A stretch of 32,000 nt of DNA from Candidatus Saccharimonadota bacterium (GCF_047555085.1 NZ_CP180230.1:270001-302000), one strand, 5' to 3'; counted from the stretch's first letter, positions 8,689-32,000 are shown. Notes: a model not told the origin generated them from the sequence alone. A program made the numbers and translations.

Positions 8689-9441
8689 TTAATCCTCTTC
8701 GATTCTCGGTGCCAGTACAAAGCTGAGATCAGCTTTTTCAGGTACAACGAACTCCAGTCTCATCGGGAAGTCATCGCCAAGCTTCATAGCGACAGTATCT
8801 GAAAGACTCTTCCCCTTGATCATCTTTGAAAGATAATCAAGTGAGAACATCGAAGAGGCCTCCGTTCCCTCAAGTGAGATAACTCCTTCGGCGTCGCTGG
8901 AGATCTCGAAGTCCACGTTCGACTGATCTCCCTTCGAGACAATCTGGATGCTTTCCGAGTCAGCGGAAACAGTTACGGAGTCCGAAACTACCATTGCATC
9001 CTTTACAGCGCCTTCAAGTACTGAGGCCTCCAGTTCAGCTTCAACTGTGAAGTCAAGCTGATCTGTGCTTGGGATGTCATCCTCGGAAAGGTTGAGGATA
9101 GGAAGTGAGAAGTTTCGTGTTGAAGCTCCTTCCATAGTGATGTGGAACTTTGACTCATCTTCGTCAAGTTCAAAAGTAATAGTATCGTCAGAATTTGCTC
9201 TTCTGAGGATCGAGTAAAAGTTTTCAAGGTTCAGGCCTACTTTTTCCTCTTCGTCAAGTTCATAGCTCTCGAATACGTCTTCCTGAAGAGTGAAGTCGAC
9301 GAGTGCAACCATCGCTGGATCAGCAGCGATCAACTGGATCCCATCATCGGTTAACTGGAACAGTCCCTCGCTGATAAGATCTGAAATGGTTTTCATGGAA
9401 TCCTTGACAAGTCCGACTTCTTCTAGTTCAGCCTTAAACAA
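8689..9441 (-). CDS. pcn: DNA polymerase sliding clamp PCNA
   Basis: 250 aa. FKAELEEVGLVKDSMKTISDLISEGLFQLTDDGIQLIAADPAMVALVDF is the typical archaeal PCNA N-terminus. Two-domain length and a C-terminal LAPRIEE. Confidence 0.9.
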   Translation of the reverse strand: MFKAELEEVGLVKDSMKTISDLISEGLFQLTDDGIQLIAADPAMVALVDFTLQEDVFESYELDEEEKVGLNLENFYSILRRANSDDTITFELDEDESKFHITMEGASTRNFSLPILNLSEDDIPSTDQLDFTVEAELEASVLEGAVKDAMVVSDSVTVSADSESIQIVSKGDQSNVDFEISSDAEGVISLEGTEASSMFSLDYLSKMIKGKSLSDTVAMKLGDDFPMRLEFVVPEKADLSFVLAPRIEED

Positions 9442-9458
9442 AATTTTTCACCTTATTG

Positions 9459-9797
9459 TTATTCAGTAGTGGATACAACTTTTTTAATCCTACTGTAGTT
9501 GTCCGGATCCACGTCGGAAAAGTCCTGTACGATCTCTCCCTGGATCTCAAAGCTGTCCGGTGTAGGAAGTACGCGTCCGAAGATACGGACTCTCTGACTT
9601 TCCTCCAGATCTTCTATCTTATCTTCTTCCAGAAATACGTCAACAGAACCTGTACTGTCGTCCACAGAGATTGAATCATCATCTATGGAAAGAACAGTTC
9701 CAACTACACGTACACGAATATCTTCACGTGGATCAATATCCTCGATATTTTTAGGCCTTGCAGGCGCTCTACGTTGATTATCTTGAGTATCAGGCAT
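9459..9797 (-). CDS. OB-fold nucleic-acid-binding protein (112 aa)
   Basis: The core IRVRVVGTVLSIDDDSISVDDSTGSVDVFL...RVRIFGRVL is a tRNA_anti/RPA-type OB pattern. The ORF track extends to 9899, but that Cys/Phe-rich extension overlaps the divergent LamG start. The ATG at 9795-9797 (MPDTQDNQ...) is preferred. Confidence 0.6.
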   Translation of the reverse strand: MPDTQDNQRRAPARPKNIEDIDPREDIRVRVVGTVLSIDDDSISVDDSTGSVDVFLEEDKIEDLEESQRVRIFGRVLPTPDSFEIQGEIVQDFSDVDPDNYSRIKKVVSTTE

Positions 9798-9892
9798 GAA
9801 ACAGAAACAGGTTACAAATGTTTTAACTGTACTCCTGCACCAGTCAGCACAAACAAGTAAAAGCAGGCCTGTAACAAAACAGTAAACAGGGA

Positions 9893-10558
9893 ATGACACT
9901 TGTCGGATACTGGCCTTTGAACGAAGAATCTGGATCGAAGGCCTATGATCACTCCGGAAACGAGAATCACGGAACTTTAACTGGAGAAGTCACTCGGCGA
10001 GTTACAGGCCTGCTAGGAGACACATCATACAGTTTTGATGGAGATAATGATTATGTGGGCATTGGTGAGCCCTCTGGATTTGGAAATAGTTCTCTGGGAA
10101 ATTCTGTTTCCGTATCTGGATGGTTCTATCCGAGAGCTGATCAAGGGGATATTTTCAGCCATGCCAGTGATTCAAACAATGATAATTTGAGAGTATTCTG
10201 GAATTCTAGTCGGAACACTTGGGGTAGTTACATCCATGCAAATAACTCCAACACTATGGACTGGAATACTTCGCCAGAATTGAACTCATGGAATCATGTT
10301 GTTTTGATATACGATGGAGAAAATCAATACCAATATTTGAACAATGAACTTGTTGCACAAAAGTCTAATACTGGAGATCTTGCTAGTTCAAAAGGCTCGC
10401 CGTGGACTGTAGGATCTAGAGGAGGAGACAGCTCGTTTTTTGATGGAAAAATTTCTGAAGTAAGACTCTACGACAGGCCTTTGACAGAAAGTGAAATCCA
10501 GTACCTGTATAGTGTTGGAAGTAGAGGCCTTCAGACGACAGTTAAGAAGTCGAGCTAG
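9893..10558 (+). CDS. LamG / concanavalin-A-like lectin fold protein (221 aa), paralogue of 1181..1822
   Basis: MTLVGYWPLNEESGSKAYDHSGNENHGT, LGDTSYSFDGDNDYV, WNHVVLIYDG, GKISEVRLYDRPLTESEIQYLYSVGSRGLQTT. No signal peptide or TM segment. Confidence 0.7.
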   Translation: MTLVGYWPLNEESGSKAYDHSGNENHGTLTGEVTRRVTGLLGDTSYSFDGDNDYVGIGEPSGFGNSSLGNSVSVSGWFYPRADQGDIFSHASDSNNDNLRVFWNSSRNTWGSYIHANNSNTMDWNTSPELNSWNHVVLIYDGENQYQYLNNELVAQKSNTGDLASSKGSPWTVGSRGGDSSFFDGKISEVRLYDRPLTESEIQYLYSVGSRGLQTTVKKSS

Positions 10559-10585
10559 GAGTTTTCTTTTTCAGACAGTTTTTTA

Positions 10586-10813
10586 TTGAGGCCTTGGTAT
10601 TTTCTTGTTGTGGATCAGGAGTCGAAGCATGACTTGGGTTACTGGTTGAGTATCCTGGGTTTCGCAATGGTTGTACTGGTAGGTCTTTTCTACAGTTTTG
10701 TGAGTTTGAATGCTGAGGCTGGCGTGGTTCTCGTGGTTCTTGGCTTCGTCTTGTTTGTGATAGGTGCGGAGCTGGCTCTGAGGAATCAGAAGCATGTGGA
10801 ATCCGGTGACTGA
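10586..10813 (+). CDS. possible small two-TM membrane protein
   Basis: Two hydrophobic stretches (LSILGFAMVVLVGLFYSFV, GVVLVVLGFVLFVIGAEL). Only non-ATG starts are available (TTG at 10586, GTG downstream), so it is uncertain whether the gene is real. Confidence 0.35.
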   Translation: MRPWYFLVVDQESKHDLGYWLSILGFAMVVLVGLFYSFVSLNAEAGVVLVVLGFVLFVIGAELALRNQKHVESGD

Positions 10814-10863
10814 AGCCGATTTTTTGTTAAGCTTCAAATACGTGGATAGTACATTTTTGTTCT

Positions 10864-11472
10864 ATGGGTCTTTTGGGAAGCGGTTCCGGTACGGCTGAAG
10901 GAATAGAGAATATCGCGCAGCGGCTTGAGAACCTTGAGTCGCATCTGAACGCTGTTGACAGCGCAGTACAGGATATAGGAGGCCGACTGGAGAATATCAA
11001 CCAGAACACTGTTACACGTCAGGAGCTTGCACAGATACTTGAACAACCGGATAACGACGACGTCGATCTCGAAGAACTGAAGGATTTCTTCGTCCAGTTA
11101 AGCCGCCAGCAGAAAAAAACAGAGCAGAGAGTCGACGAGATCGAAAATCTTGAATCAGAACTTGTTGAAACGCTTCAAAGCATGCAGAAAACGCTGAAGA
11201 AGGCGCACAAAAACACTAAGAATCTTGAAAGCCGTGTACAGTCTATAGAGAAAAAGGCCTCAAGCTTTGATCGACGTCTAGATGAACACGAGGAGAAACT
11301 TGAGGAAACTACAGAAATAAAGGAAGAGCTGGAGGAAGTTGAACGCGAGGCCTCTGCTGAAAACTCTCAGGAAAGTAAAAGCTTCGAGGAACGTCAGGAA
11401 GACGTTGAAGACGAACTTAAAGAACTCAGAGGATCTATAAAGCAGTTTTCTGAAAAAATTTCAGAGGAGTAA
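10864..11472 (+). CDS. acidic coiled-coil protein (hypothetical)
   Basis: 202 aa with heptad-like repeats rich in E/L/K/Q (LENLESHLNAVDSAVQDIGGRLENI, EIENLESELVETLQSMQKTLKK). No catalytic motif. Confidence 0.5.
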   Translation: MGLLGSGSGTAEGIENIAQRLENLESHLNAVDSAVQDIGGRLENINQNTVTRQELAQILEQPDNDDVDLEELKDFFVQLSRQQKKTEQRVDEIENLESELVETLQSMQKTLKKAHKNTKNLESRVQSIEKKASSFDRRLDEHEEKLEETTEIKEELEEVEREASAENSQESKSFEERQEDVEDELKELRGSIKQFSEKISEE

Positions 11473-11497
11473 AAAATTCCCCTGATTTTTGAGGCCT

Positions 11498-11848
11498 CTA
11501 GTCGTATTCTTTGTGGACGTTTCCGCAGTCACGGCACTTGTAAAATCTTGTAGGTGGCTCGTCGCTGCTTCTTGTCTGTTCCATCCACCATTCATGTTCT
11601 TTCTCATCTTCGTTATCGGATGAACATTTAGGGCATACTTTGTTTGTTGTAGGCCTTGTTGATTCGTTGTTTGCTCCTTCGTTAACGTTTAAACGATCCA
11701 TAGGATCTTCTTCTTTTGTCTCTGTTACTCTGTAGCTGCCGTCGACGTCGTGAACAGTCCCACAGTCACGGCATTTCATCACTGATTCTCCATCTACTTT
11801 TTCAGAGACAAGTAGTCCTCCACAGTCTTCGTCTTTACAGAACTCCAT
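11498..11848 (-). CDS. tfs: transcription factor S (TFS / RpoM-like)
   Basis: N-terminal zinc ribbon (C..C...CRDC). C-terminal ribbon CPKC....QTRSSDEPPTRFYKCRDCG with the acidic DE hairpin typical of TFIIS/TFS domain III. Confidence 0.8.
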   Translation of the reverse strand: MEFCKDEDCGGLLVSEKVDGESVMKCRDCGTVHDVDGSYRVTETKEEDPMDRLNVNEGANNESTRPTTNKVCPKCSSDNEDEKEHEWWMEQTRSSDEPPTRFYKCRDCGNVHKEYD

Positions 11849-11883
11849 GGTTAAGCTACATGTGCACCTTACATTTAAATGGG

Positions 11884-12657
11884 TTAAGCTGATCCACAGC
11901 TCGGAGTGTTATCGATGACGAAAGGCTGATCGCCGCTATACCCCATGAAATCCATCAGTAAAATCTTCACAAGGCCCAGTCGCGGAATCTCCACTGCAAC
12001 TGTTCCATGAATCTGATCAGGCCTCACACTGTCCTCGAACTCCAGCTGCCCGCGATTATTATCTCCCATAGTCTCAACGTGATCATCACTCTTCTCGATA
12101 ACACGGTGGACTATAGGAACGTTCCCGTAAGGAAGATCAGTCAGATAATCTATCTCGATGCTACCTCCAGCGAACTCGTAACTGTTGCCTTCCACAAGAA
12201 CAGAGTCGTCTCCTCCTGATTCAGGGATCGAACCATTGATCCTGAAGATTGCAGAGTCTCTAGAACGATCAGTAGTTGAAGGCCTCACATCAACAAGCTG
12301 GACAGTCCCGATACCTGTCTCAACTGTTTCACTTGGCTGCTCCTCAGAGGCCTCTAAAGTATAACTTTCTCCGTTGACAGTAAACTCTGCTCTGTCAGGC
12401 ACATCGTACACGATTATATCATCCTCCTGTATCTCACTGTAATCCTCGCTCTGGACAACAAGGATATCACCTACCTGGAGCGCAGGACACATCGAAGTCG
12501 AAATAACAGTTACGACAGGTTTCTCCGTTCCAAGGCCTGCTCCAGCCGTCTGAAGGATGCCGAACGCCAGAACAATAGACAGAATCAGAAAGTACGACTC
12601 ATCCAGAAAACGGTTCTCATCGACAAAATCCTTCAAGGCCTGAAGTTCACTGTTCAT
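11884..12657 (-). CDS. signal peptidase I, archaeal/eukaryotic Sec11 type (S26B), with a large insertion
   Basis: N-terminal TM segment. Ser box VISTSMCPALQVGDILVV, GDIIVY-like box (DDIIVYD), His box PIVHRVIEK, and GDNN box (TMGDNNRGQ). Confidence 0.8.
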   Translation of the reverse strand: MNSELQALKDFVDENRFLDESYFLILSIVLAFGILQTAGAGLGTEKPVVTVISTSMCPALQVGDILVVQSEDYSEIQEDDIIVYDVPDRAEFTVNGESYTLEASEEQPSETVETGIGTVQLVDVRPSTTDRSRDSAIFRINGSIPESGGDDSVLVEGNSYEFAGGSIEIDYLTDLPYGNVPIVHRVIEKSDDHVETMGDNNRGQLEFEDSVRPDQIHGTVAVEIPRLGLVKILLMDFMGYSGDQPFVIDNTPSCGSA

Positions 12658-12741
12658 ACAACAAACAGTTTTCCACCACTTATTTTTAAACTGACGACTT
12701 CACTCAAGAAAATCTTCCAGAAAAACTGAAGTAGGAAAAAT

Positions 12742-12860
12742 AGTGCTGGCAGTGTCCTGGAATTCCCGCCGAAAGGCAGTACCGGCCAGATCGCTGAGAA
12801 GCTTAACTTCCGTGTTCGGAATGGGTACGGGTGTAACCTTCACGCTGTGACCGCCAGCAA
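12742..12860 (-). rRNA. 5S ribosomal RNA (stand-alone)
   Basis: The reverse complement reads UUGCUGGCGGUCACAGCGUGAAGGUUACACCCGUACCCAUUCCGAACACGGAAGUUAAGCUUCUCAGCGAUCUGGCCGGUACUGCC...CACUGCCAGCAC. It has the universal CCGAACACGGAAGUUAAGC loop C/helix III region, and the 5' and 3' ends pair (GCUGGCGG/CUGCCAGC). No 16S/23S in the window. Confidence 0.9.
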
Positions 12861-12881
12861 CAAACAAACAGGCCTTAAACC

Positions 12882-12888
12882 TTATAAA
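12882..12888 (-). promoter_or_regulatory. TATA box (TTTATAA on the minus strand) for the 5S rRNA gene
   Basis: Centred about 25 nt upstream of the inferred 5S 5' end. Oligo-T tracts follow the 3' end (minus-strand reading of 12700-12741). Confidence 0.45.
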
Positions 12889-12994
12889 CCATGCCAAAGG
12901 ATAGGCCTCTCTGCCCCGGGGGGAAAGTATTCTCGTGGTGCTTTACCAATCGAAATGTTTATTTTACAGGCCTCGAAAAGTCTTTACTATAGGA

Positions 12995-13261
12995 ATGATT
13001 CTGAAAAACAGAAAAGGCTCGGCTCTGGGAGGAGGAAGCGATAAAGGAAAACTGAAGAAGCTTCTCGAGGGATCAACACTTGTAGATCTTCTTACTCTCG
13101 GAGTTCTCGGATACAACTTCACCCTTCTGAGAGACTCCGGATACGGCTCCTCAAGTCTTCTCCAGATGCCAGGAAGCCAGGAGATGCTCGCCGCCCAGCT
13201 GACAGCCCTAGTAATAGCTATCTACGTTATAGAAGCGATAATCGACAGCGCAGGCGAATAA
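12995..13261 (+). CDS. possible small membrane protein (88 aa)
   Basis: In-frame ATG at 12995 (MILKNRKGS...). Hydrophobic segments LVDLLTLGVLGY and LTALVIAIYVIEAII. The upstream part of the track ORF (from 12935) abuts the 5S promoter region. Confidence 0.4.
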   Translation: MILKNRKGSALGGGSDKGKLKKLLEGSTLVDLLTLGVLGYNFTLLRDSGYGSSSLLQMPGSQEMLAAQLTALVIAIYVIEAIIDSAGE

Positions 13262-13307
13262 AAAAATACAGTCAAGGCCTCAGAGCATTTTATCCATCAA
13301 AAATTTT

Positions 13308-13733
13308 TCACAGAAAGCTCAGAAGCTCCTCTCCACGTCCTTTGGATATCCTTGACGAAACAACTTCATCTTTATACAGGCCACATCCCACAACTTTACC
13401 CTCGAAAACTATAGCAACGTATCCTTCTTCAGAGGCCTCTGCAGGAACCATCTCTCCGTCTAAAATCTCTTTAAGTTCTTCTTTATCCAGTTCTACATTG
13501 TTACGGGAGATCTCATCGCTCAGAAGCTGTAGAGCATACGTAGTAGGCTTCAGAAACTTTCCAGTATCCCGTAAAGCTCTGATTCCACGCGTCTCGGAGT
13601 CAATATCCCTGTCTTCTTTTTCCGAAACTAGCCAGAAATCTCCCGAGATCTTCTCCAGCTCCAGGCCTTCAATATTATCTATATCTACTTCAAAACGTTC
13701 ATCAAAAAATTCAGAGGCATCTTCCACCTTCAT
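13308..13733 (-). CDS. RsmF-type PUA-like RNA-binding domain protein (stand-alone)
   Basis: The C-terminal GYVAIVFEGKVVGCGLYKDEVVSSRISKGRG resembles the PUA-like C-terminal domain attached to RsmF/NSUN methyltransferases. Lies directly downstream of the NSUN gene. The ATG at 13731-13733 (MKVEDASE...) is preferred over the track start at 13772, which overlaps the upstream gene. Confidence 0.5.
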   Translation of the reverse strand: MKVEDASEFFDERFEVDIDNIEGLELEKISGDFWLVSEKEDRDIDSETRGIRALRDTGKFLKPTTYALQLLSDEISRNNVELDKEELKEILDGEMVPAEASEEGYVAIVFEGKVVGCGLYKDEVVSSRISKGRGEELLSFL

Positions 13734-26899: not shown

Positions 26900-27089
26900 A
26901 GGCCCGATTTACCGTACAAAGTTTAAGAAACTACATCTCGCCCGAAGAAAAATTCTCCTCCATCAACAATTCTCCTCGTCAAGAGGCCTCTCAGTAACAG
27001 GATAATGTTTTCAGGCCTGCAGCCGATTTTCCGGCACCTGTTTTAAACTGTTTTTATAAGAGTCGCCCTAGAATTGTTTTCTGTAAGAC

Positions 27090-27097
27090 TTTAAAAC
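27090..27097 (+). promoter_or_regulatory. TATA-like box TTTAAAAC upstream of the RNase J gene
   Basis: Centred about 22 nt upstream of the ATG at 27115. AAGGTGA (27098-27104) could alternatively serve as an SD-like element. Confidence 0.35.
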
Positions 27098-27114
27098 AAG
27101 GTGAAATTTCTAAC

Positions 27115-28428
27115 ATGAAAGTTTACACATTAGGTGGATATGAAGAAGTTGGTATGAACATGACCGCAGTTGAAGTTGACGGAGAAGTCGTCATCTTTGA
27201 CATGGGTTACAACATGGAAAACGTCATATCCGCAGAAGGACACGTCGACGAAATGACAACAAATCAGAGCCTCGAGATCGGGGCAGTACCGGAAGACGAA
27301 CCGGTTCTAGACAAAAACGTAGTAGGAATCGTCATCGGACACGGACACCTCGACCACGTGGGAGGAATCCCAAAACTGGCAGGTAGCCATGACTGTCCGA
27401 TCTACTGTACTCCTTACACAGCAGAGATCGTAGAGAGAGGATTGGACGACGACCGGAAGAACGCCGGCAACCAGGTAATCAGACTTGAAAAGGGAGAAAG
27501 GATGGATCTGACAGGCAATCTAACTTTAGAATTTGCTCACGTCAACCACAGTATTCCTGATGCAACACTAAGCCTTCTGGAGACACCGGAAGGATACGCC
27601 GTCTACGGAAACGACATGAAGATCGACCGTTCTCCAGTTATCGAAGACACAACCGATATCGACCGACTCAAGGAAGTCGGAGAGGAAGGAGTCAAAGTCA
27701 TGATCCCGGGAACAACAAGAGTCGATTCCCCTGGACGAGCACGCTCCGAAAAGTCAGTTGAAGTAGAACTCAGAGACGTACTTGAATCCTGCTACGACGC
27801 AGGAGGCGCAGTATTCTTCTCAACATTCTCAAGCCAGATCAGCCGCTTGAACTCCGTAATCGACGCAAACGACGGAAGAAGAAAGATCATCTTCGTCGGA
27901 CGCTCACTGAAGGAATACGTTGAATCAGCAGAGAAGCTTGATTTGATCGATACCGATCAGATCGAAGTAGTCAGTTACTTCGACGAAGTAGAGGAGAAGA
28001 TGGACGAAGTTGACGCAGCAAGAGAAGACTACCTTGTCGTCGCAACCGGAAACCAGGGAGAACCTGGCGCACAGCTCGACAAGATGGCTTCAGGAACATA
28101 CCCATTCGACTTCGAGGAAGGAGATCACATGATCTTTTCCAGCAACGTCATCCCTACACCAGTCAACGAAGCCAACAGACACAAGCTAGAGAAGAAACTG
28201 GAAGAGAAAGGAGTCAGGATCTATCCGGGAATCCACACCACAGGACACGCCCACAAAGAAGACCACAGAGACTTCATCAACTTCTTCGATCCAGAACACA
28301 TCGTCCCAAGCCACGGAACAATCCAGAAACTCGGAAGCTACGTAGAACTAGCCCGAGAAGAAGGATACAGCCTAGGAGACAACGTCTACATCTCCGAAAA
28401 CGGCAAATGCATTGACTTGGACGAATAA
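27115..28428 (+). CDS. rnj: archaeal RNase J (beta-CASP metallo-beta-lactamase)
   Basis: 437 aa with VIGHGHLDHVGGIP (HxHxDH), NHSIPDA, and a beta-CASP region ending in TTGHAHKEDH and VPSHG. Confidence 0.85.
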   Translation: MKVYTLGGYEEVGMNMTAVEVDGEVVIFDMGYNMENVISAEGHVDEMTTNQSLEIGAVPEDEPVLDKNVVGIVIGHGHLDHVGGIPKLAGSHDCPIYCTPYTAEIVERGLDDDRKNAGNQVIRLEKGERMDLTGNLTLEFAHVNHSIPDATLSLLETPEGYAVYGNDMKIDRSPVIEDTTDIDRLKEVGEEGVKVMIPGTTRVDSPGRARSEKSVEVELRDVLESCYDAGGAVFFSTFSSQISRLNSVIDANDGRRKIIFVGRSLKEYVESAEKLDLIDTDQIEVVSYFDEVEEKMDEVDAAREDYLVVATGNQGEPGAQLDKMASGTYPFDFEEGDHMIFSSNVIPTPVNEANRHKLEKKLEEKGVRIYPGIHTTGHAHKEDHRDFINFFDPEHIVPSHGTIQKLGSYVELAREEGYSLGDNVYISENGKCIDLDE

Positions 28429-28436
28429 AGTTTCTT

Positions 28437-28466
28437 AGAGGCCTGAAACAAGGCCTCTCACCTTTT
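28437..28466 (+). terminator. perfect 8-bp hairpin from two AGGCCT copies plus a T-tract
   Basis: AGAGGCCT (28437-28444), GAAACA loop, AGGCCTCT (28451-28458), then CACCTTTTATT. Begins 9 nt after the RNase J stop. Confidence 0.55.
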
Positions 28467-28544
28467 ATTGTATTTAATCTTCTTTCCGCTACATTCTCCT
28501 GATTAACCAAACCAAAATAAAATTTGGGAAGAATATTCTGGTAA

Positions 28545-29549
28545 ATGTTTGGTTTTCTGAATATTTGCACTCTGGCGATAATTTTCCCGCTTTTCATATT
28601 AGGGGTATACTATTTTTCGGACTTTTTCTGGTCTCCATTTTCAGTTAGGGTAAGGTTAACCTTGAGATTGCTCAAAACCAATAAAAAGGAGATTTGGAAG
28701 CATAGAGATATACTTAGACTTGAAAGCTTCAACTCGCAAATAATAGTTTCTTCGTTAATGACTGTCGCTATAGGATTTTTGGGGTATTCTCTCTCACATA
28801 TTTTTACAAGCAGTATTTTCGATAATCTAAAAAAGAGTGATCTACAATCTTTATGGACAATACAAGGAACTCTGGTATCTATAAGCTTTATCATACTTAC
28901 TCACTTGTGGGATCAACTCACAGAATTCGTGCCAGAAGGCATAGTTGATTTAATAGCTCGAAAAACGTATAGTTTTCCAATAATTATATTCAACTTTGTT
29001 GTTCTGATAGCAACAGGAGTTCTAGTCTTTCTAGTTTCTGAAGATTCTAGTAACACCCAGTTTACACTCCCAATATTTCTACTGGGTCTTTCAAGTGTCT
29101 TGAGTATAGTGTGGTTGTACTCTAGAGTTTCAAAAATAGTTCTCTACAATGGAATTTCTAATTTTGCTATTAGCCAAGCAAGAGACGAGATAGATGAAGA
29201 ATCTTGGAAGAACACCAAATACCAGATAGGCAATGAAATTCTAGATAGCAAAATCCCATCATACAGAAAAAGTCAGAAATCATTGAATTTAAGCAATGAC
29301 GTAACCATAACTGCTGAAGATTTAGATCTTGAAGGACATATTTCTGATATAAATTATCGAAGACTGAAGAAAATATTTTCTATAATCGATCCTGAAAAAG
29401 TCACATCAGGCCCAAGTTTAGGTCAAGATTTTTCTAGAGAAAATGATGCAGTATTAAGACTGAAGGAAAATATTAGTCAAGAAACTAGAGAAAAATTAAC
29501 TAACCAGTTGAGAAAATCAATTAAGACATCGAAAGGGTTTTCATTATGA
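28545..29549 (+). CDS. hypothetical polytopic membrane protein (334 aa) of the AT-rich island
   Basis: Five hydrophobic segments by eye (about aa 3-24, 64-86, 103-121, 143-164, 173-192), then a charged soluble tail of about 140 aa. The TGA overlaps the ATG of the next gene (ATGA at 29546-29549). No family confidently recognised. Confidence 0.6.
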   Translation: MFGFLNICTLAIIFPLFILGVYYFSDFFWSPFSVRVRLTLRLLKTNKKEIWKHRDILRLESFNSQIIVSSLMTVAIGFLGYSLSHIFTSSIFDNLKKSDLQSLWTIQGTLVSISFIILTHLWDQLTEFVPEGIVDLIARKTYSFPIIIFNFVVLIATGVLVFLVSEDSSNTQFTLPIFLLGLSSVLSIVWLYSRVSKIVLYNGISNFAISQARDEIDEESWKNTKYQIGNEILDSKIPSYRKSQKSLNLSNDVTITAEDLDLEGHISDINYRRLKKIFSIIDPEKVTSGPSLGQDFSRENDAVLRLKENISQETREKLTNQLRKSIKTSKGFSL

Positions 29550-31522
29550 ACGAAAATCTTAATACACTCTTAGACTACTTTGGAAGCCGAGCCTCAAAGA
29601 GTTTGTCTGAAAATGACCTCTACCTCTTCAAGGAAAGATTAGAGGAATATCGGGAAATAATTGAGTATTACTTGGAAAACAGAGCTATACCTAGAGATAG
29701 ATCACTTGGTTCTAGCGTAAGACGCCCTTCAAATCGAATTATCCAAAATCTCATCAACCTCTATGAGGTGGCGATATCGAAGCCAAATACACAGTTTAGC
29801 TTAGAGTTAATCGGGTCAGTACGCTTACTAATTTCAAGAGCCTACTCTGAAAGAGACAGAATGATGCTGGAAAAGTTTCTCTCTGTATATGAAGATTTTG
29901 TTAGATTAGATTTAGAGAAAAATGACTCTGAAATGAGTAGGGCTTTACTTCTTAGATTAAAGAAATCTGCAGACCACATATTATATGATGTAGAAAATAA
30001 TTTAGATACTAAAGATACTTTAGTTGCTCTGGAATTTCTCGCTCTATTCTACAATAGTCAAAAAGAGCTTATAAGAAAAATTATAGTTTCCGAAAACAAA
30101 GAGCTATTCGTTAAGTCCCTCAAGATGTTTGATGAACATAATAGTAAGCTAGATCGAATCAAATCGGATATTAATTTCCGAGATATTTCGGATAACTCCG
30201 AACCTCAAAAAGAAGATTCTGATATACTCGATAAGATAGATGATCTAAATCAAGAATTGGAAGAAACTCCTTTTGGGGTAGGTGCCTGGGTGTTTAGAGA
30301 ATATGAGAACGGTAATCTTGACGAAGATTTCTTTAATAATGTAAGAGAGGAGGTAATAGGGAAATTTGAAAACAAATCTATCGGCGAAATCTCTAGTATC
30401 TACTTTGAAATTCTAGAAAGCACTCCCTCTTACTGGAATAGTTGGCAAATGTCAGAGGAATTAGATGTTTTTGAAGGCGCAACTTCCATGGGAAGCCCTG
30501 CTGCAGTTTCATGGATTCAAAATTTCTACTGCGGTCTAATGATTAGGAATATTAGCGACGATAAAATAGAGGAAATCTTAGAAAGAGAAGAAGAGTTCTC
30601 AAATCCGATATCAGTAAGAAAATCAATCAAAGATAATATTGAAAGTCTCAAAGAACAAACTCAGAATTTTTCAACAGAAGAATCTCTAATGAGAGATATA
30701 GAGGATATCCGGTCAAGAAAAGAAGCAGTAAGCAAAATTTTCGAAAATATTAAATCTGAGATAGAGACGGACGAAAGACAGGAAATAATCAATTCAGAAG
30801 TGTCCGACTCTTTGGTTTCTGAGTTCAAAACAGGGCTTAGAGATAGTTGGGAGTCAAATGCTGATTTCAGGAAACTCTATAATGACTTGGGCAGATTTGA
30901 AGAAAATTCATCAGAAGCTCCTGAAGAAGCTAGAGAGCTAGGGCTGAACAGAGTTTTCTACCGCAGTTATTTTGTGGAAGATTCTCCCAGAAACTGGGTT
31001 AGAAATGTAGATGATAACTGGGGTAGAGCTATAGCAAAAAAGGAAAATGAAGTGATTTTTGAGGAACTATTCGGCTCTATTGAGTTCCAGAAAATTTCAT
31101 GGGAAGAAATAGATTCCAGAATGTTAGATGCTGATATAAGCGGATTTGAGGATTCTCAGCCAATAATGCTTGTAGGAAATAGCCCTCGACTAAAATATAG
31201 AGCTAAAAATATAGAGAGATTAGAAATCAATGAAGAGAAAGGAAAATATCTCTATAACAACAAAGAAGTACCTATATACCATATCAACCATCTTAGAGAT
31301 AAATTAATAATCACAACCGCAGAGAGACTAGGAAGACTTCTCCAGTATTCAGAAGGAGAAAATCTATCAATAGAATTTAGTGAAAATATTCCTTCAGATG
31401 TCTCTAAAAACTTGGAATTAGAAGATCCCGAAACTAGAGTCTTGATTAAAGCATCAGAATCCTTTGAGGTTAAAGAAATACAGCAGGATAGTTCAACCAT
31501 CAGTTATGAAATCCAGGAATAA
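29546..31522 (+). CDS. hypothetical large soluble protein (658 aa) of the AT-rich island
   Basis: Uninterrupted 1.98-kb ORF in AT-rich DNA, where random ORFs of this length are very unlikely. Predicted mostly helical and E/K/N/S/I-rich. No P-loop, HNH, DEAD, PD-(D/E)xK or other motif recognisable by eye. Confidence 0.65.
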   Translation: MNENLNTLLDYFGSRASKSLSENDLYLFKERLEEYREIIEYYLENRAIPRDRSLGSSVRRPSNRIIQNLINLYEVAISKPNTQFSLELIGSVRLLISRAYSERDRMMLEKFLSVYEDFVRLDLEKNDSEMSRALLLRLKKSADHILYDVENNLDTKDTLVALEFLALFYNSQKELIRKIIVSENKELFVKSLKMFDEHNSKLDRIKSDINFRDISDNSEPQKEDSDILDKIDDLNQELEETPFGVGAWVFREYENGNLDEDFFNNVREEVIGKFENKSIGEISSIYFEILESTPSYWNSWQMSEELDVFEGATSMGSPAAVSWIQNFYCGLMIRNISDDKIEEILEREEEFSNPISVRKSIKDNIESLKEQTQNFSTEESLMRDIEDIRSRKEAVSKIFENIKSEIETDERQEIINSEVSDSLVSEFKTGLRDSWESNADFRKLYNDLGRFEENSSEAPEEARELGLNRVFYRSYFVEDSPRNWVRNVDDNWGRAIAKKENEVIFEELFGSIEFQKISWEEIDSRMLDADISGFEDSQPIMLVGNSPRLKYRAKNIERLEINEEKGKYLYNNKEVPIYHINHLRDKLIITTAERLGRLLQYSEGENLSIEFSENIPSDVSKNLELEDPETRVLIKASESFEVKEIQQDSSTISYEIQE

Positions 31523-31696
31523 ACACCTAATTATAAGATCAAATTTCCAATAGGTCTCATATTTGCTGAAGCTACTGAAAAGGAGTTACTGATTAAACTT
31601 TCTGGGCCTCTAATCAATTTTGTGAGTTATTCCAGTCCGGAAAAATCCTTGTATCGAAGATTCTTGATAGAGGCCTCTAGGGAGATGTTCTTGTAG

Positions 31697-32000
31697 ATGG
31701 GAAGGGCGAATAATTGGCGGAAGGAGTCTGAGGATGGCGAGAGTATTGTCTGGCTTCATGAGGGCGGATATGATTTCAGGCTTCGTGCGGATAAGGATGA
31801 GGATAAGAAGTGGGCCTTGAGTTTGTCCAGTGATATTTTGCCGGAGAAGTATGATAAAGAAGTTTTGACGATGGATACGAAGAAAAAGGCCCGGAGTATT
31901 GCTTTTGACTGGAGGAAGTCTCATACAGAATCCAGTGATTTACTGAAGGAAGTAGGCCTTTCTATGAGCAGTTCGAGGAACGTGTTCAATCCTTTCAACA
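31697..32000 (+). CDS. hypothetical protein, 5' part (open to the right edge)
   Basis: Not in the ORF track because there is no stop in the window. The ATG at 31697 opens MGRANNWRKESEDGESIVWLHEGGYDFRLRADKDEDKKWALSLSSDILPEKYDKEVLTMDTKKKARSIAFDWRKSH... with host-like charged composition. The antisense track ORF 31610..31924 looks like low-complexity nonsense. Confidence 0.45.
   Translation, partial: MGRANNWRKESEDGESIVWLHEGGYDFRLRADKDEDKKWALSLSSDILPEKYDKEVLTMDTKKKARSIAFDWRKSHTESSDLLKEVGLSMSSSRNVFNPFN

Follow-up and report, generated by a model that had tools for sequence, protein, structure and literature searches.

A split membrane-anchored protein pair on a foreign island of a nanohaloarchaeon is a candidate antiviral module

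Main

Kiwa (KwaA/KwaB) and RexA/RexB of lambda each combine a small multi-transmembrane (TM) protein with a larger cytoplasmic partner in one membrane complex, and are found in defence islands. Other defence genes, such as BrxU/GmrSD and PARIS, are embedded in BREX loci. The membrane family DUF2254 (Pfam PF10011) is widespread and uncharacterised, and is treated in one paper as a predicted knotted family. SNIPE, a nuclease bound to the membrane, cuts phage DNA as it is injected (bioRxiv 10.1101/2025.11.03.685801).

We analysed a stretch of 32,000 nucleotides (the window) from Candidatus Nanosalina sp. VS9-1, a tiny salt-loving archaeon (nanohaloarchaea, DPANN). A first-pass annotation had singled out in it an AT-rich island with a membrane protein gene and a gene for a 658-aa protein. 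Like Kiwa and RexA/RexB, this locus is a two-gene operon for a membrane and a cytosolic protein; the analogy is confined to architecture. The sequences are unrelated, the membrane subunit has five TM segments and a 140-aa tail, and the soluble partner is built from a solenoid and an alpha/beta domain rather than being a DUF4868 or RexA protein. SNIPE, a membrane-localised defence at the entry site that interacts with a virion protein, may be a functional analogue, but it is a nuclease, and no nuclease motif or domain is detectable in the window pair. One distant fused homologue (L045) lies within a type 3 BREX operon, as BREX-embedded defence genes do, whereas the window has no BREX gene, the other 11 homologue contexts lack BREX, and the family is not a canonical BREX component.

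An AT-rich island behind the RNase J gene

The features of the locus are as follows.

28437 to 28458, plus strand: terminator hairpin of the RNase J gene, AGAGGCCT-gaaaca-AGGCCTCT, then a T-rich tail
28459 to 31590, no strand: AT-rich, AGGCCT-free island of about 3.1 kb, right edge approximate
28514 to 28525, plus strand: TATA-like A/T-rich element, AAAATAAAATTT, read from the sequence
28545 to 29549, plus strand: gene for the membrane subunit, 334 aa, five TM segments
29546 to 29549, plus strand: ATGA stop/start overlap joining the membrane and soluble subunit genes
29546 to 31522, plus strand: gene for the soluble subunit, 658 aa, predicted cytoplasmic
31697 to 32000, plus strand: 5′ part of the next gene, of host-like composition, outside the island

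AGGCCT is the commonest hexamer of the window, with 132 copies against 6.9 ± 2.3 in dinucleotide-preserving shuffles; the host part holds 130 of them, where about 6 would be expected. After copies at 28439 and 28451, none follows until 31671, in agreement with the first-pass count, and this gap of 3,214 bp is indeed improbably long (recomputed P = 4e-7 at the host rate of 130 per 28,458 bp). At that rate about 15 copies would be expected in the island, which has 0. Only 0.47 would be expected from the island’s own composition, which makes the island simply motif-naive. It thereby provides an internal control, indicating that the host’s 20-fold enrichment of AGGCCT is a property acquired by resident DNA. 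The RNase J gene is also AGGCCT-free, over 1.3 kb (P of about 1.5e-3), which is not significant across all 130 gaps.

The claimed AT-rich shift is equally clear, with G+C falling from 0.466 in the host part (0.47 rounded) to 0.345 in the island and third-position G+C (GC3) lying at 0.29–0.31 in both island genes versus 0.35–0.69 in 29 host ORFs; the three sampled 60-nt lines behind the claim (19, 16 and 29 G+C) were recounted with identical results. The terminator hairpin, which contains the last two host copies of AGGCCT, forms the left edge, so that the island does begin just after the RNase J terminator. On the right, blastn homology to a second copy of the pair (described below) stops at 31546, and the motif and host-like composition are back by 31671. 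The gene that follows is host-like in composition and in the AGGCCT copies near it (31671 and 31954), as had been proposed; it has no Pfam match and no homologue beside RNase J in relatives. RNase J, GatD and GatE (Pfam) lie upstream, and the neighbours of the island within the window are housekeeping genes. Judged by archaeal promoter geometry, the TATA-like element, whose centre lies about 26 nt upstream of the start codon at 28545, may be part of the operon’s own archaeal promoter, with a leaderless mRNA.

None of the marks of an integrative mobile element (integrase or transposase, flanking tRNA, terminal repeats) was found. An ORF scan of 28459–31670 revealed no integrase or transposase, and there is none among the window ORFs, as first stated. 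No tRNA target flanks the island, the sole tRNA being 7 kb away, and no candidate flanking repeat or attachment site is convincing, since matches between the boundaries share just the host AGAGGCCT motif.

Foreign origin and purifying selection

The 3′ flank of RNase J in relatives was searched for the pair, which is absent from 32 of 32 related nanohaloarchaeal genomes with this RNase J neighbourhood. What follows RNase J varies between relatives, and many of them have there a gene of about 160 aa and one of about 556 aa. A downstream gene or conserved neighbour that would mark the empty site was sought and rejected as a candidate, because the region is variable and no relative has the window’s downstream gene. 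The possibility that the RNase J gene arrived together with the island is ruled out by its G+C of 0.489 and GC3 of 0.53. As a separate observation, its 5′ end has an odd 94% identity to two MAG contigs.

The only close copy of the pair, 80% identical, lies on a metagenome contig (L001), again in an AT-rich island (0.35), beside a flank of 0.46 that is unrelated to the flank in the window. Absent from 32 relatives, AT-rich and without the host motif, the window’s island is, on these sequence criteria, foreign and horizontally acquired, as the first-pass annotation held. The acquisition is recent. However, both copies are low in G+C despite a dS of 0.45, and AT-richness may thus characterise the gene pool and need not prove a very recent arrival. 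Between the L001 and window copies of the 658-aa gene, dN/dS is 0.23 over 658 codons at this dS, a pattern of substitutions that places the gene under purifying selection and marks it as functional.

Two coupled genes without a described family

The island holds exactly two genes with an ATGA overlap, as originally read (ORFs 28545–29549 and 29546–31522), an arrangement that indicates translational coupling. The overlap has counterparts elsewhere, namely GTGA in L001 and 4 bp in a split haloarchaeal pair (L034).

In the 334-aa protein, the five hydrophobic helices reported earlier correspond to five hydropathy peaks, beginning at residues 1, 66, 103, 146 and 173. The positive-inside rule predicts an N-out/C-in topology with a cytoplasmic tail from residue 194 to 334. 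A motif in this tail, G264-x-[IV]-x-D268-x-N-[YL]-x-x-L274, is conserved, and its GHISDINY, which the first-pass annotation had quoted, is the best-conserved stretch of the membrane subunit, with D268 present in 36 of 39 sequences. GenBank annotates the gene as ACK3SF_01795, with 263 aa from M72 (28758), which is too short; homology to fused relatives starts at residue 12 and supports the 334-aa ORF over this annotation.

The 658-aa protein has no signal peptide and is predicted to be cytoplasmic. The first-pass annotation could assign neither protein to a family, and searches of Pfam, NCBIfam, PHROGs and PADLOC gave no matching model for either; domain searches and conserved residues reveal no recognisable effector or catalytic domain and no nuclease motif in either. 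PADLOC-DB v2 (5027 models), which covers Kiwa, Zorya, Abi families and PDC candidates, gave 0 families at E ≤ 1 for either window protein, and for 58 relatives it gave nine single-member matches (E 1e-3 to 9e-3), none of which recurs.

Fused and split forms of one family

An exhaustive HMMER search recovered 75 distant homologues (clusters) among 1.84 billion representative proteins, distributed over archaea (including haloarchaea) and bacteria. The haloarchaeal members include WP_172824862 of Halorientalis and WP_254810785 of Natronosalvus. By comparison, a word-index protein search with both proteins returned the own genome’s entries and one 80% relative only, and a 76-sequence profile used in the same kind of search returned 3 proteins. 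No relatives were found in metagenome contigs, in IMG/VR viral contigs or, by tblastn with the whole protein and its C-terminal part, in 50,697 phage genomes.

About 41 of the 75 homologues are single proteins of 800–1250 aa with an N-terminal multi-TM region, which in at least 32 of them is homologous to the window’s membrane protein. This protein matches fused N-termini directly (P0034, 5.6e-20; P0013, 1.2e-17), its residues 12–282 aligning to 35–305 of fused proteins, and the subunit as a whole corresponds to their N-terminal region of about 350 aa. Residues 6–491, 15–594 and similar ranges of the 658-aa protein align to 376–873 and 381–970 of such fused proteins. An iterated search united 40 membrane domains, including 37 fused proteins (32 among the 75 representatives) and the separate upstream partner of a split homologue (P0004). 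Both window proteins are thus colinear with single fused polypeptides.

Since about 41 of 75 homologues have the two parts fused in a single polypeptide, it follows that the two genes code for a single functional unit, in keeping with the earlier proposal that they act together. By homology, each gene encodes one half of a protein that belongs to a rare, unnamed membrane-anchored family, and the pair is its split form. With both split and fused forms, the family is a clean case of gene fission from which the interacting partners can be recognised.

As in DUF2254, a multi-TM region at the N-terminus precedes a cytoplasmic domain in this family, and the first-pass annotation had been faintly reminded of DUF2254 by the membrane protein’s tail. 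The resemblance has some basis in relatives, since no other Pfam family is matched by two or more of the fused relatives (DUF2254: 3 of 58 at E ≤ 0.1, best E 1.7e-5). It fails for the window’s membrane protein, which has no match to DUF2254 even at E ≤ 1, and the one match that was inspected (P0010, residues 369–623 on profile positions 40–265) scores 19.1 bits against a cut-off of 28.8. DUF2254 proteins also lack the 650-aa module of solenoid and alpha/beta domain.

Predicted architecture of the soluble subunit

An AlphaFold model of the 658-aa protein has a pLDDT of 92.3 and a pTM of 0.85; a single-sequence model with a pLDDT of 36 was discarded. The model comprises two parts.

29546 to 30886, plus strand: predicted alpha-helical solenoid, residues 1–447, about 20 helices
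30893 to 31522, plus strand: predicted alpha/beta domain, residues 450–658 and the stop codon

The earlier description of the protein as apparently all-helical does not hold for the C-terminal third (about 450–658), which is modelled as alpha/beta (pLDDT 92). Conserved residues of the protein are mostly aromatic or structural. They include the solenoid aromatics W248, Y286, W297, W300 and Y328 and, in the alpha/beta domain, G466, K/R473, F476, G493, E500, P576, Q600 and V632.

The monomer model was searched with Foldseek. Against the PDB, this search and a profile search of PDB sequences yielded designed and natural helical repeats only, matches that reflect the solenoid and its composition, not homology; capsids are absent from the top 50 PDB structure matches, and the profile of the C-terminal domain alone has no match among PDB sequences. 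Against BFVD, the search gave weak capsid matches: among the 31 best, 8 carry an annotation as HK97-type or major capsid protein, and a further 2 as phage structural protein. The capsid matches have target-normalised TM-scores of 0.25–0.51, several with an r.m.s.d. of 5–6 Å over 209–294 columns, but their E-values are weak (6.5e-4 to 0.2).

The predicted domain runs from a beta-hairpin through a 22-residue helix and a mixed alpha/beta region to a long C-terminal strand, which in our reading fits the HK97 order of hairpin, long helix, alpha/beta core and long terminal strand. Neither the window protein nor 58 relatives match capsid or encapsulin families of Pfam (such as Phage_capsid or Linocin_M18) or PHROG, and tblastn of residues 380–658 against 50,697 phage genomes gave no match at E ≤ 10. 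HK97 capsids and encapsulins are free shell proteins, whereas this domain ends a membrane-anchored solenoid protein. We treat the HK97-type likeness of the modelled alpha/beta domain as a tentative lead.

Homologues near defence genes and mobile elements

The genomic contexts of 12 homologues were inspected. By raw count, eight are defence islands or mobile elements:

between BrxC and PglXI-PglZ-BrxA of a type 3 BREX operon (L045), same strand, gaps of 36 and 47 bp
right after HKD-SNF2 and type IIG restriction–modification (R-M) genes, before a GmrSD-like gene
on a Natronosalvus plasmid, beside a PemK toxin–antitoxin pair, DUF955 and type III R-M
adjoining type I HsdM/HsdS and an AAA_15 ATPase
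amid toxin–antitoxin pairs, an SMC/AAA_15 protein, GmrSD_C and a methyltransferase
beside an MNT/HEPN pair and a conjugative type IV secretion module
beside Mrr and an integrase, in an integrated element of Halorientalis
within an element that also carries an integrase and phage-like replication genes

The other 4 of the 12 are neutral or weakly suggestive, two of these lying among ordinary chromosomal genes; one homologue region holds virus-related PHROG genes. Homologues used for context share 15–25% identity with the window protein and could differ from it in function. The neighbourhoods of distant homologues support the accessory conflict or defence role first suggested for the pair, but no homology links the pair to a known defence system, and its own neighbours are housekeeping genes.

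The pair is a candidate defence module not described before, and we put at about even the chances that this horizontally acquired operon encodes a membrane-tethered module of sensor/effector type directed against viruses or mobile elements. Read differently, the same neighbourhoods would make the pair selfish cargo of mobile elements, used for superinfection exclusion, an entry block or the maintenance (addiction) of a virus or plasmid, and in Nanosalina left behind or inserted as a minimal cassette. Several homologues do lie inside mobile elements (conjugative, integrase-bearing, the integrated element of Halorientalis, a plasmid, the region with virus-related PHROG genes), and membrane anchoring is typical of exclusion proteins, among them T4 Imm and P22 SieA. 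We nevertheless consider this rather unlikely, given that IMG/VR and the 50,697 phage genomes hold no relatives, that the island lacks an integrase, repeats and other mobile-element genes, and that the family is embedded in chromosomal-type BREX and R-M operons. The line between this reading and defence is in practice blurred, since a host is protected by exclusion as well.

An accessory membrane function outside conflict, for example as a tethered scaffold or adaptor for the envelope, symbiont–host contact or stress, would suit the lack of a recognisable effector domain, solenoids being generic protein-binding scaffolds, as well as the two homologues amid ordinary chromosomal genes and the weak resemblance of the membrane domain to DUF2254, which has no known link to defence. 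Such a role is quite improbable in view of the very patchy distribution (0 of 32 related genomes; 75 clusters in 1.84 billion representative proteins), the foreign composition and the strong association between homologues and defence genes or mobile elements; direct contact with the host cell is also argued against by a soluble part that is predicted to be cytoplasmic and has no signal peptide. It is extremely improbable that the island is a decaying provirus remnant, with a relic capsid-like gene and its neighbour serving no present function, for although the C-terminal domain has capsid-like matches and the composition is AT-rich and foreign, both ORFs are intact and coupled, purifying selection (dN/dS 0.23 at dS 0.45) already largely refutes a relic, the same colinear architecture occurs in about 75 families of archaea and bacteria, and the island has no other viral genes.

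A model for the candidate module

If the pair is a defence module, the 334-aa subunit would sit in the cytoplasmic membrane through its five helices and expose its cytoplasmic tail. The 658-aa subunit, translated by coupling, would dock on this tail and present the alpha-solenoid and the C-terminal alpha/beta domain to the cytoplasm. There the soluble part might recognise a component of a virus, either at the membrane or at an early stage of infection; the capsid-like fold makes a capsid or another virion protein a possible target. The membrane part could be a mere anchor at the entry site, or an effector that compromises the membrane.

A more specific version, which we judge distinctly unlikely, is that the family is a domesticated viral capsid-fold protein turned to immunity. 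An HK97-like domain on a solenoid arm, tethered by its own five-TM subunit, would recognise or co-assemble with capsid proteins of head-tailed viruses that are entering or being assembled, as a decoy or sensor, and thereby poison assembly or trigger a membrane effector. Were this true, it would be a new class of antiviral mechanism common to haloarchaea, bacteria and a DPANN symbiont, and sometimes plugged into BREX and R-M loci. The capsid-like fold, if it holds, would in itself add a new instance of viral structural proteins put to cellular use.

As a compact two-gene module of an unnamed family found near BREX, R-M, GmrSD and toxin–antitoxin genes, the pair is a concrete candidate for a new defence system, and the haloarchaeal homologues WP_172824862 and WP_254810785 make the family testable in tractable hosts. 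CRISPR and R-M systems are under-represented in DPANN archaea, and compact systems are enriched (PMC12988326). Nanohaloarchaea are infected by at least four groups of viruses, head-tailed and others (bioRxiv 10.1101/2025.02.15.638363). A module of this kind is of interest for DPANN archaea such as these, which have tiny genomes and few recognisable defences and yet are infected by viruses.

A foreign two-gene island

Candidatus Nanosalina sp. VS9-1 is a nanohaloarchaeon (DPANN archaea) whose 1.05-Mb contig carries, directly after RNase J, two genes joined by an ATGA overlap. Both their placement behind the RNase J terminator and their sizes of 334 and 658 amino acids, as given in a first-pass annotation made from the sequence alone, agree with the terminator hairpin and open reading frames (ORFs) found here. 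Pfam identifies the upstream genes as RNase J, GatD, GatE and a small kinase-like ATPase.

Features of the island and its edge (window positions)
28437–28458, RNase J terminator hairpin; the island begins directly after it
28545–29549, membrane subunit, 334 aa (GenBank ACK3SF_01795)
29546–31522, soluble subunit, 658 aa (GenBank ACK3SF_01800)

The GenBank version of the membrane subunit starts at M72 (263 aa) and omits 28545–28757, which drops TM1, a positively charged loop and half of TM2. Because alignments to fused relatives begin at residue 12, the 334-aa ORF is the better gene call and the likely product of this gene. A putative A/T-rich TATA-like box lies roughly 26 nt upstream of its ATG.

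The G+C content of the island is 0.345 versus 0.466 in the host part (1–28458), and GC3 of its two genes is 0.29 and 0.31 versus 0.35–0.69 in 29 host ORFs; the three 60-nt lines quoted earlier indeed hold 19, 16 and 29 G+C. As also noted then, the island has no integrase, and neither an adjacent tRNA nor convincing terminal repeats were found. The soluble subunit is acidic (pI 4.6, 21% Asp+Glu), like proteins of salt-in-cytoplasm organisms, and thus the donor was probably another halophile.

A second line of evidence is the hexamer AGGCCT, the commonest in the host part, where it is over-represented approximately 20-fold (130 copies, where a first-order Markov model predicts 6.3). The window total is 132, versus 6.9 ± 2.3 in dinucleotide-preserving shuffles. 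Copies fall in each of the three codon phases and are denser between genes (6.8 versus 4.3 per kb), and the motif favours GAGGCCTC. It resembles the cyanobacterial HIP1 ‘highly iterated palindrome’, and none of the literature searched links AGGCCT to Nanohaloarchaeota. Between 28451 and 31671 there is no copy, and this 3,214-bp gap, the feature that first drew attention to the island, is real (P ~4e-7 at the host rate). Because the island’s own composition predicts only 0.47 copies, its sequence behaves as ordinary DNA that was never exposed to the agency that enriches the motif.

The RNase J gene (27115–28428), of native G+C (0.489), likewise lacks AGGCCT throughout its 1,314 bp, against about 6 copies predicted by the host rate. 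Taken as one gap this has P ~1.5e-3, and it loses significance allowing for 130 gaps. Among nanohaloarchaeal loci (L003, L005, L006, L023, L025 and L032 versus L002, L026 and L033), enrichment is patchy: 2–4 per kb in M3_22, SG9, NHA29 and others, and absent (<0.5 per kb) in J07AB43 and in L033, although L033 and the enriched L032 are equally close to the window.

An RNase J scan with one genome per species yielded 32 loci from nanohaloarchaea, and roughly a dozen keep gatE–kinase–gatD–RNase J synteny. None of the 32 encodes either of the island proteins (tblastn, blastn), and in many relatives the RNase J 3′ side carries two genes of roughly 160 and 556 aa in place of the island. The island is of foreign origin.

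Two irregularities were seen at these loci. The metagenome-assembled contigs L032 and L033 are 73–77% identical to the window across gatE/gatD, and identity rises to 94% (98% protein) at the RNase J promoter and first 40–80 codons, where both contigs stop (window 27053–27359; L032:9939–10245; L033:9940–10127). This jump could reflect recent RNase J recombination or chimeric contig ends from co-assembled strains. On scaffold GL982576 of Candidatus Nanosalina sp. J07AB43 (L002), a second, partial gatD–RNase J copy (11811–13520; 62% and 87% protein identity to the window genes) directly follows the first, and may be a scaffolding artefact joining two population variants or a real duplication.

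Among 5.8 billion clustered proteins there is one close relative, a protein of 658 aa with 80% identity encoded on L001. This 2,459-bp JGI metagenome contig has the final 55 codons of the membrane gene and, joined to them by a GTGA overlap, the complete second gene. Its flank is unrelated to that of the window, and its G+C is 0.35 in the island part and 0.46 in the flank. Comparison of the two copies gives dN/dS 0.23 (dS 0.45), and therefore the 658-aa gene is under purifying selection.

Split and fused forms

The 658-aa protein has 75 homologues (E ≤ 1e-3) among 1.84 billion representative proteins searched exhaustively with HMMER, and 15 of them reach E ≤ 1e-10. About 41 are 800–1,250 aa long with 4–6 hydrophobic segments within the first ~200 residues, about 26 are soluble (550–770 aa) and the remainder are fragments. 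The membrane subunit directly matches the N termini of the long homologues, best in P0034 (5.6e-20), P0013 (1.2e-17), P0028 (3.2e-17) and P0020 (3.8e-15). An iterated membrane-domain search united 37 fused proteins, 32 of which belong to the 75; the other nine long homologues, missed by this search, also have N-terminal TM segments. It also retrieved a fused protein from a Natronosalvus plasmid and a 381-aa protein whose gene lies immediately before that of the split homologue P0004 and overlaps it by 4 bp. In a colinear alignment, the membrane subunit corresponds to fused residues ~35–340 and the soluble subunit to ~375–1030. This Rosetta-stone pattern, along with translational coupling, shows that the two gene products form one functional unit.

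Judged by pI values and contig marker genes, members occur in bacteria as well as in halophilic and other archaea. Their distribution is patchy and the family is rare, two traits typical of defence genes. One metagenomic member, P0010 (1,254 aa), has an extra transglutaminase-like (cysteine protease fold) domain (residues 48–156, Pfam E 1.6e-9) between its first TM segment and the family membrane domain, which may serve as an additional effector or in processing.

Predicted architecture

The membrane subunit has five hydropathy peaks, and homologues such as P0028 and P0050 have the same five segments. Because the first loop carries 9 Lys+Arg and the 658-aa protein lacks a signal sequence, the positive-inside rule predicts an N-out/C-in orientation, with the tail and the partner cytoplasmic. 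The tail stretch quoted in the first-pass annotation is the best-conserved part (G264-x-[IV]-x-D268-x-N-[YL]-x-x-L274, with D268 kept in 36 of 39 sequences). The likeness to DUF2254 tentatively suggested there survives in part: this is the only recurrent Pfam match among fused relatives (3 of 58), but the single relative match inspected scores below cut-off, the window membrane protein has no match to it, and DUF2254 is itself an uncharacterised family.

For the soluble subunit, AlphaFold2 with a 76-sequence alignment gave a confident model (pLDDT 92.3, pTM 0.85), versus a pLDDT of only 36 from the single sequence. In this model residues 1–447 form an alpha-solenoid of ~20 helices and residues 450–658 an alpha/beta domain, so that the earlier description of the protein as all-helical fails for its C-terminal part. 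Conserved positions (W248, Y286, W297, W300, G311, Y328, E410, F427, R442, G466, K/R473, F476, G493, E500, P576, Q600 and V632) include no recognisable catalytic motif.

Foldseek against the PDB returned only designed or natural helical repeats (query-normalised TM-score ≤0.30), as did PDB-sequence profile searches. Against BFVD viral structures, the 31 best matches include 8 annotated as HK97-type or major capsid proteins and 2 more annotated as phage structural proteins, with a haloarchaeal tailed virus among the matches; target-normalised TM-scores are 0.25–0.51, several with rmsd 5–6 Å across 209–294 columns, and E values are weak (6.5e-4 to 0.2). The order of elements in the C-terminal domain (hairpin 451–472, helix 488–509, mixed alpha/beta, long strand 631–643) is one we take to be compatible with the HK97 fold. 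Sequence comparisons lend this likeness no support: none of 58 members matches capsid Pfam or PHROG families, a C-terminal-domain-only profile has no match in the PDB, and tblastn against phage genomes returned nothing. That the family mimics a capsid is doubtful.

Genomic neighbourhoods

By their gene neighbourhoods, homologues are associated with defence genes and mobile elements: 8 of the 12 contexts read are defence islands or mobile elements, a raw count that amounts to guilt by association.

Contexts of homologues
P0023 (L045), between the BrxC end and PglXI–PglZ–BrxA of a type 3 BREX operon, same strand; PDC-S02 candidate gene next
P0080 (L044), after an HKD-SNF2 protein and a type IIG restriction-methylase, same strand, 13-bp gap; then a GmrSD-like protein
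Fused homologue (L043, Natronosalvus plasmid NZ_CP101159), PemK toxin–antitoxin pair and DUF955 on one side, type III R-M on the other
P0079, type I HsdM/HsdS and an AAA_15/AAA_21 ATPase
P0034 (L037), two toxin–antitoxin pairs, SMC/AAA_15 protein, GmrSD_C, methyltransferase
P0028 (L038), MNT/HEPN pair and conjugative type IV secretion module
P0005 (L039, Halorientalis), Mrr and integrase
P0016 (L041), integrase and phage-like replication genes
P0004 (L034–36, weak), haloarchaeal region with two virus-related PHROG genes
P0012 (L046, weak), PIN toxin–antitoxin pair nearby
P0045 (L040, neutral), ordinary chromosomal genes
P0007 (L042, neutral), ordinary chromosomal genes

At L045, the gene after the BREX type 3 locus (9099–10142) matches the PADLOC candidate family PDC-S02 (E 1.2e-56), and since that locus embeds a family member, L045 stacks at least three defence-type modules. 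About 2 kb separate the archaeal fused P0007 from a beta-CASP ribonuclease gene upstream of it (L042:6722–7999 and 10001–12862), as the window pair follows RNase J, probably by coincidence.

A candidate antiviral module

The suggestion that the island is an accessory conflict system is partly borne out by the split/fusion relationship, the confident structural model and the defence and mobile-element neighbourhoods, although a defence function remains a candidate. We favour, at roughly even odds, the reading that the pair is a membrane-tethered antiviral (anti-mobile-element) module. The five-TM subunit would anchor the solenoid and alpha/beta subunit at the cytoplasmic membrane face. We infer sensing and effect in their entirety: the soluble part would sense some component of the virus, possibly a capsid protein or one involved in entry, and the membrane part would either merely localise the complex at the entry site or be the effector.

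The integrase, conjugative and plasmid contexts also bear on a selfish function for a mobile element, such as superinfection exclusion or maintenance, which we consider unlikely. A non-conflict membrane scaffold, with which the two neutral contexts would fit, is quite improbable. A decaying proviral relic is contradicted by dN/dS and the conserved architecture, and is scarcely credible.

Searches of PADLOC-DB v2 gave no match; Kiwa and RexAB resemble the pair in operon architecture only, and SNIPE in location only (bioRxiv 10.1101/2025.11.03.685801). The one homologue inside a BREX operon is comparable to other defence genes found within BREX loci; BREX genes are absent from the window. The family lies outside every described family and, as a kind of system, would be a new form of compact membrane-associated defence-island module.
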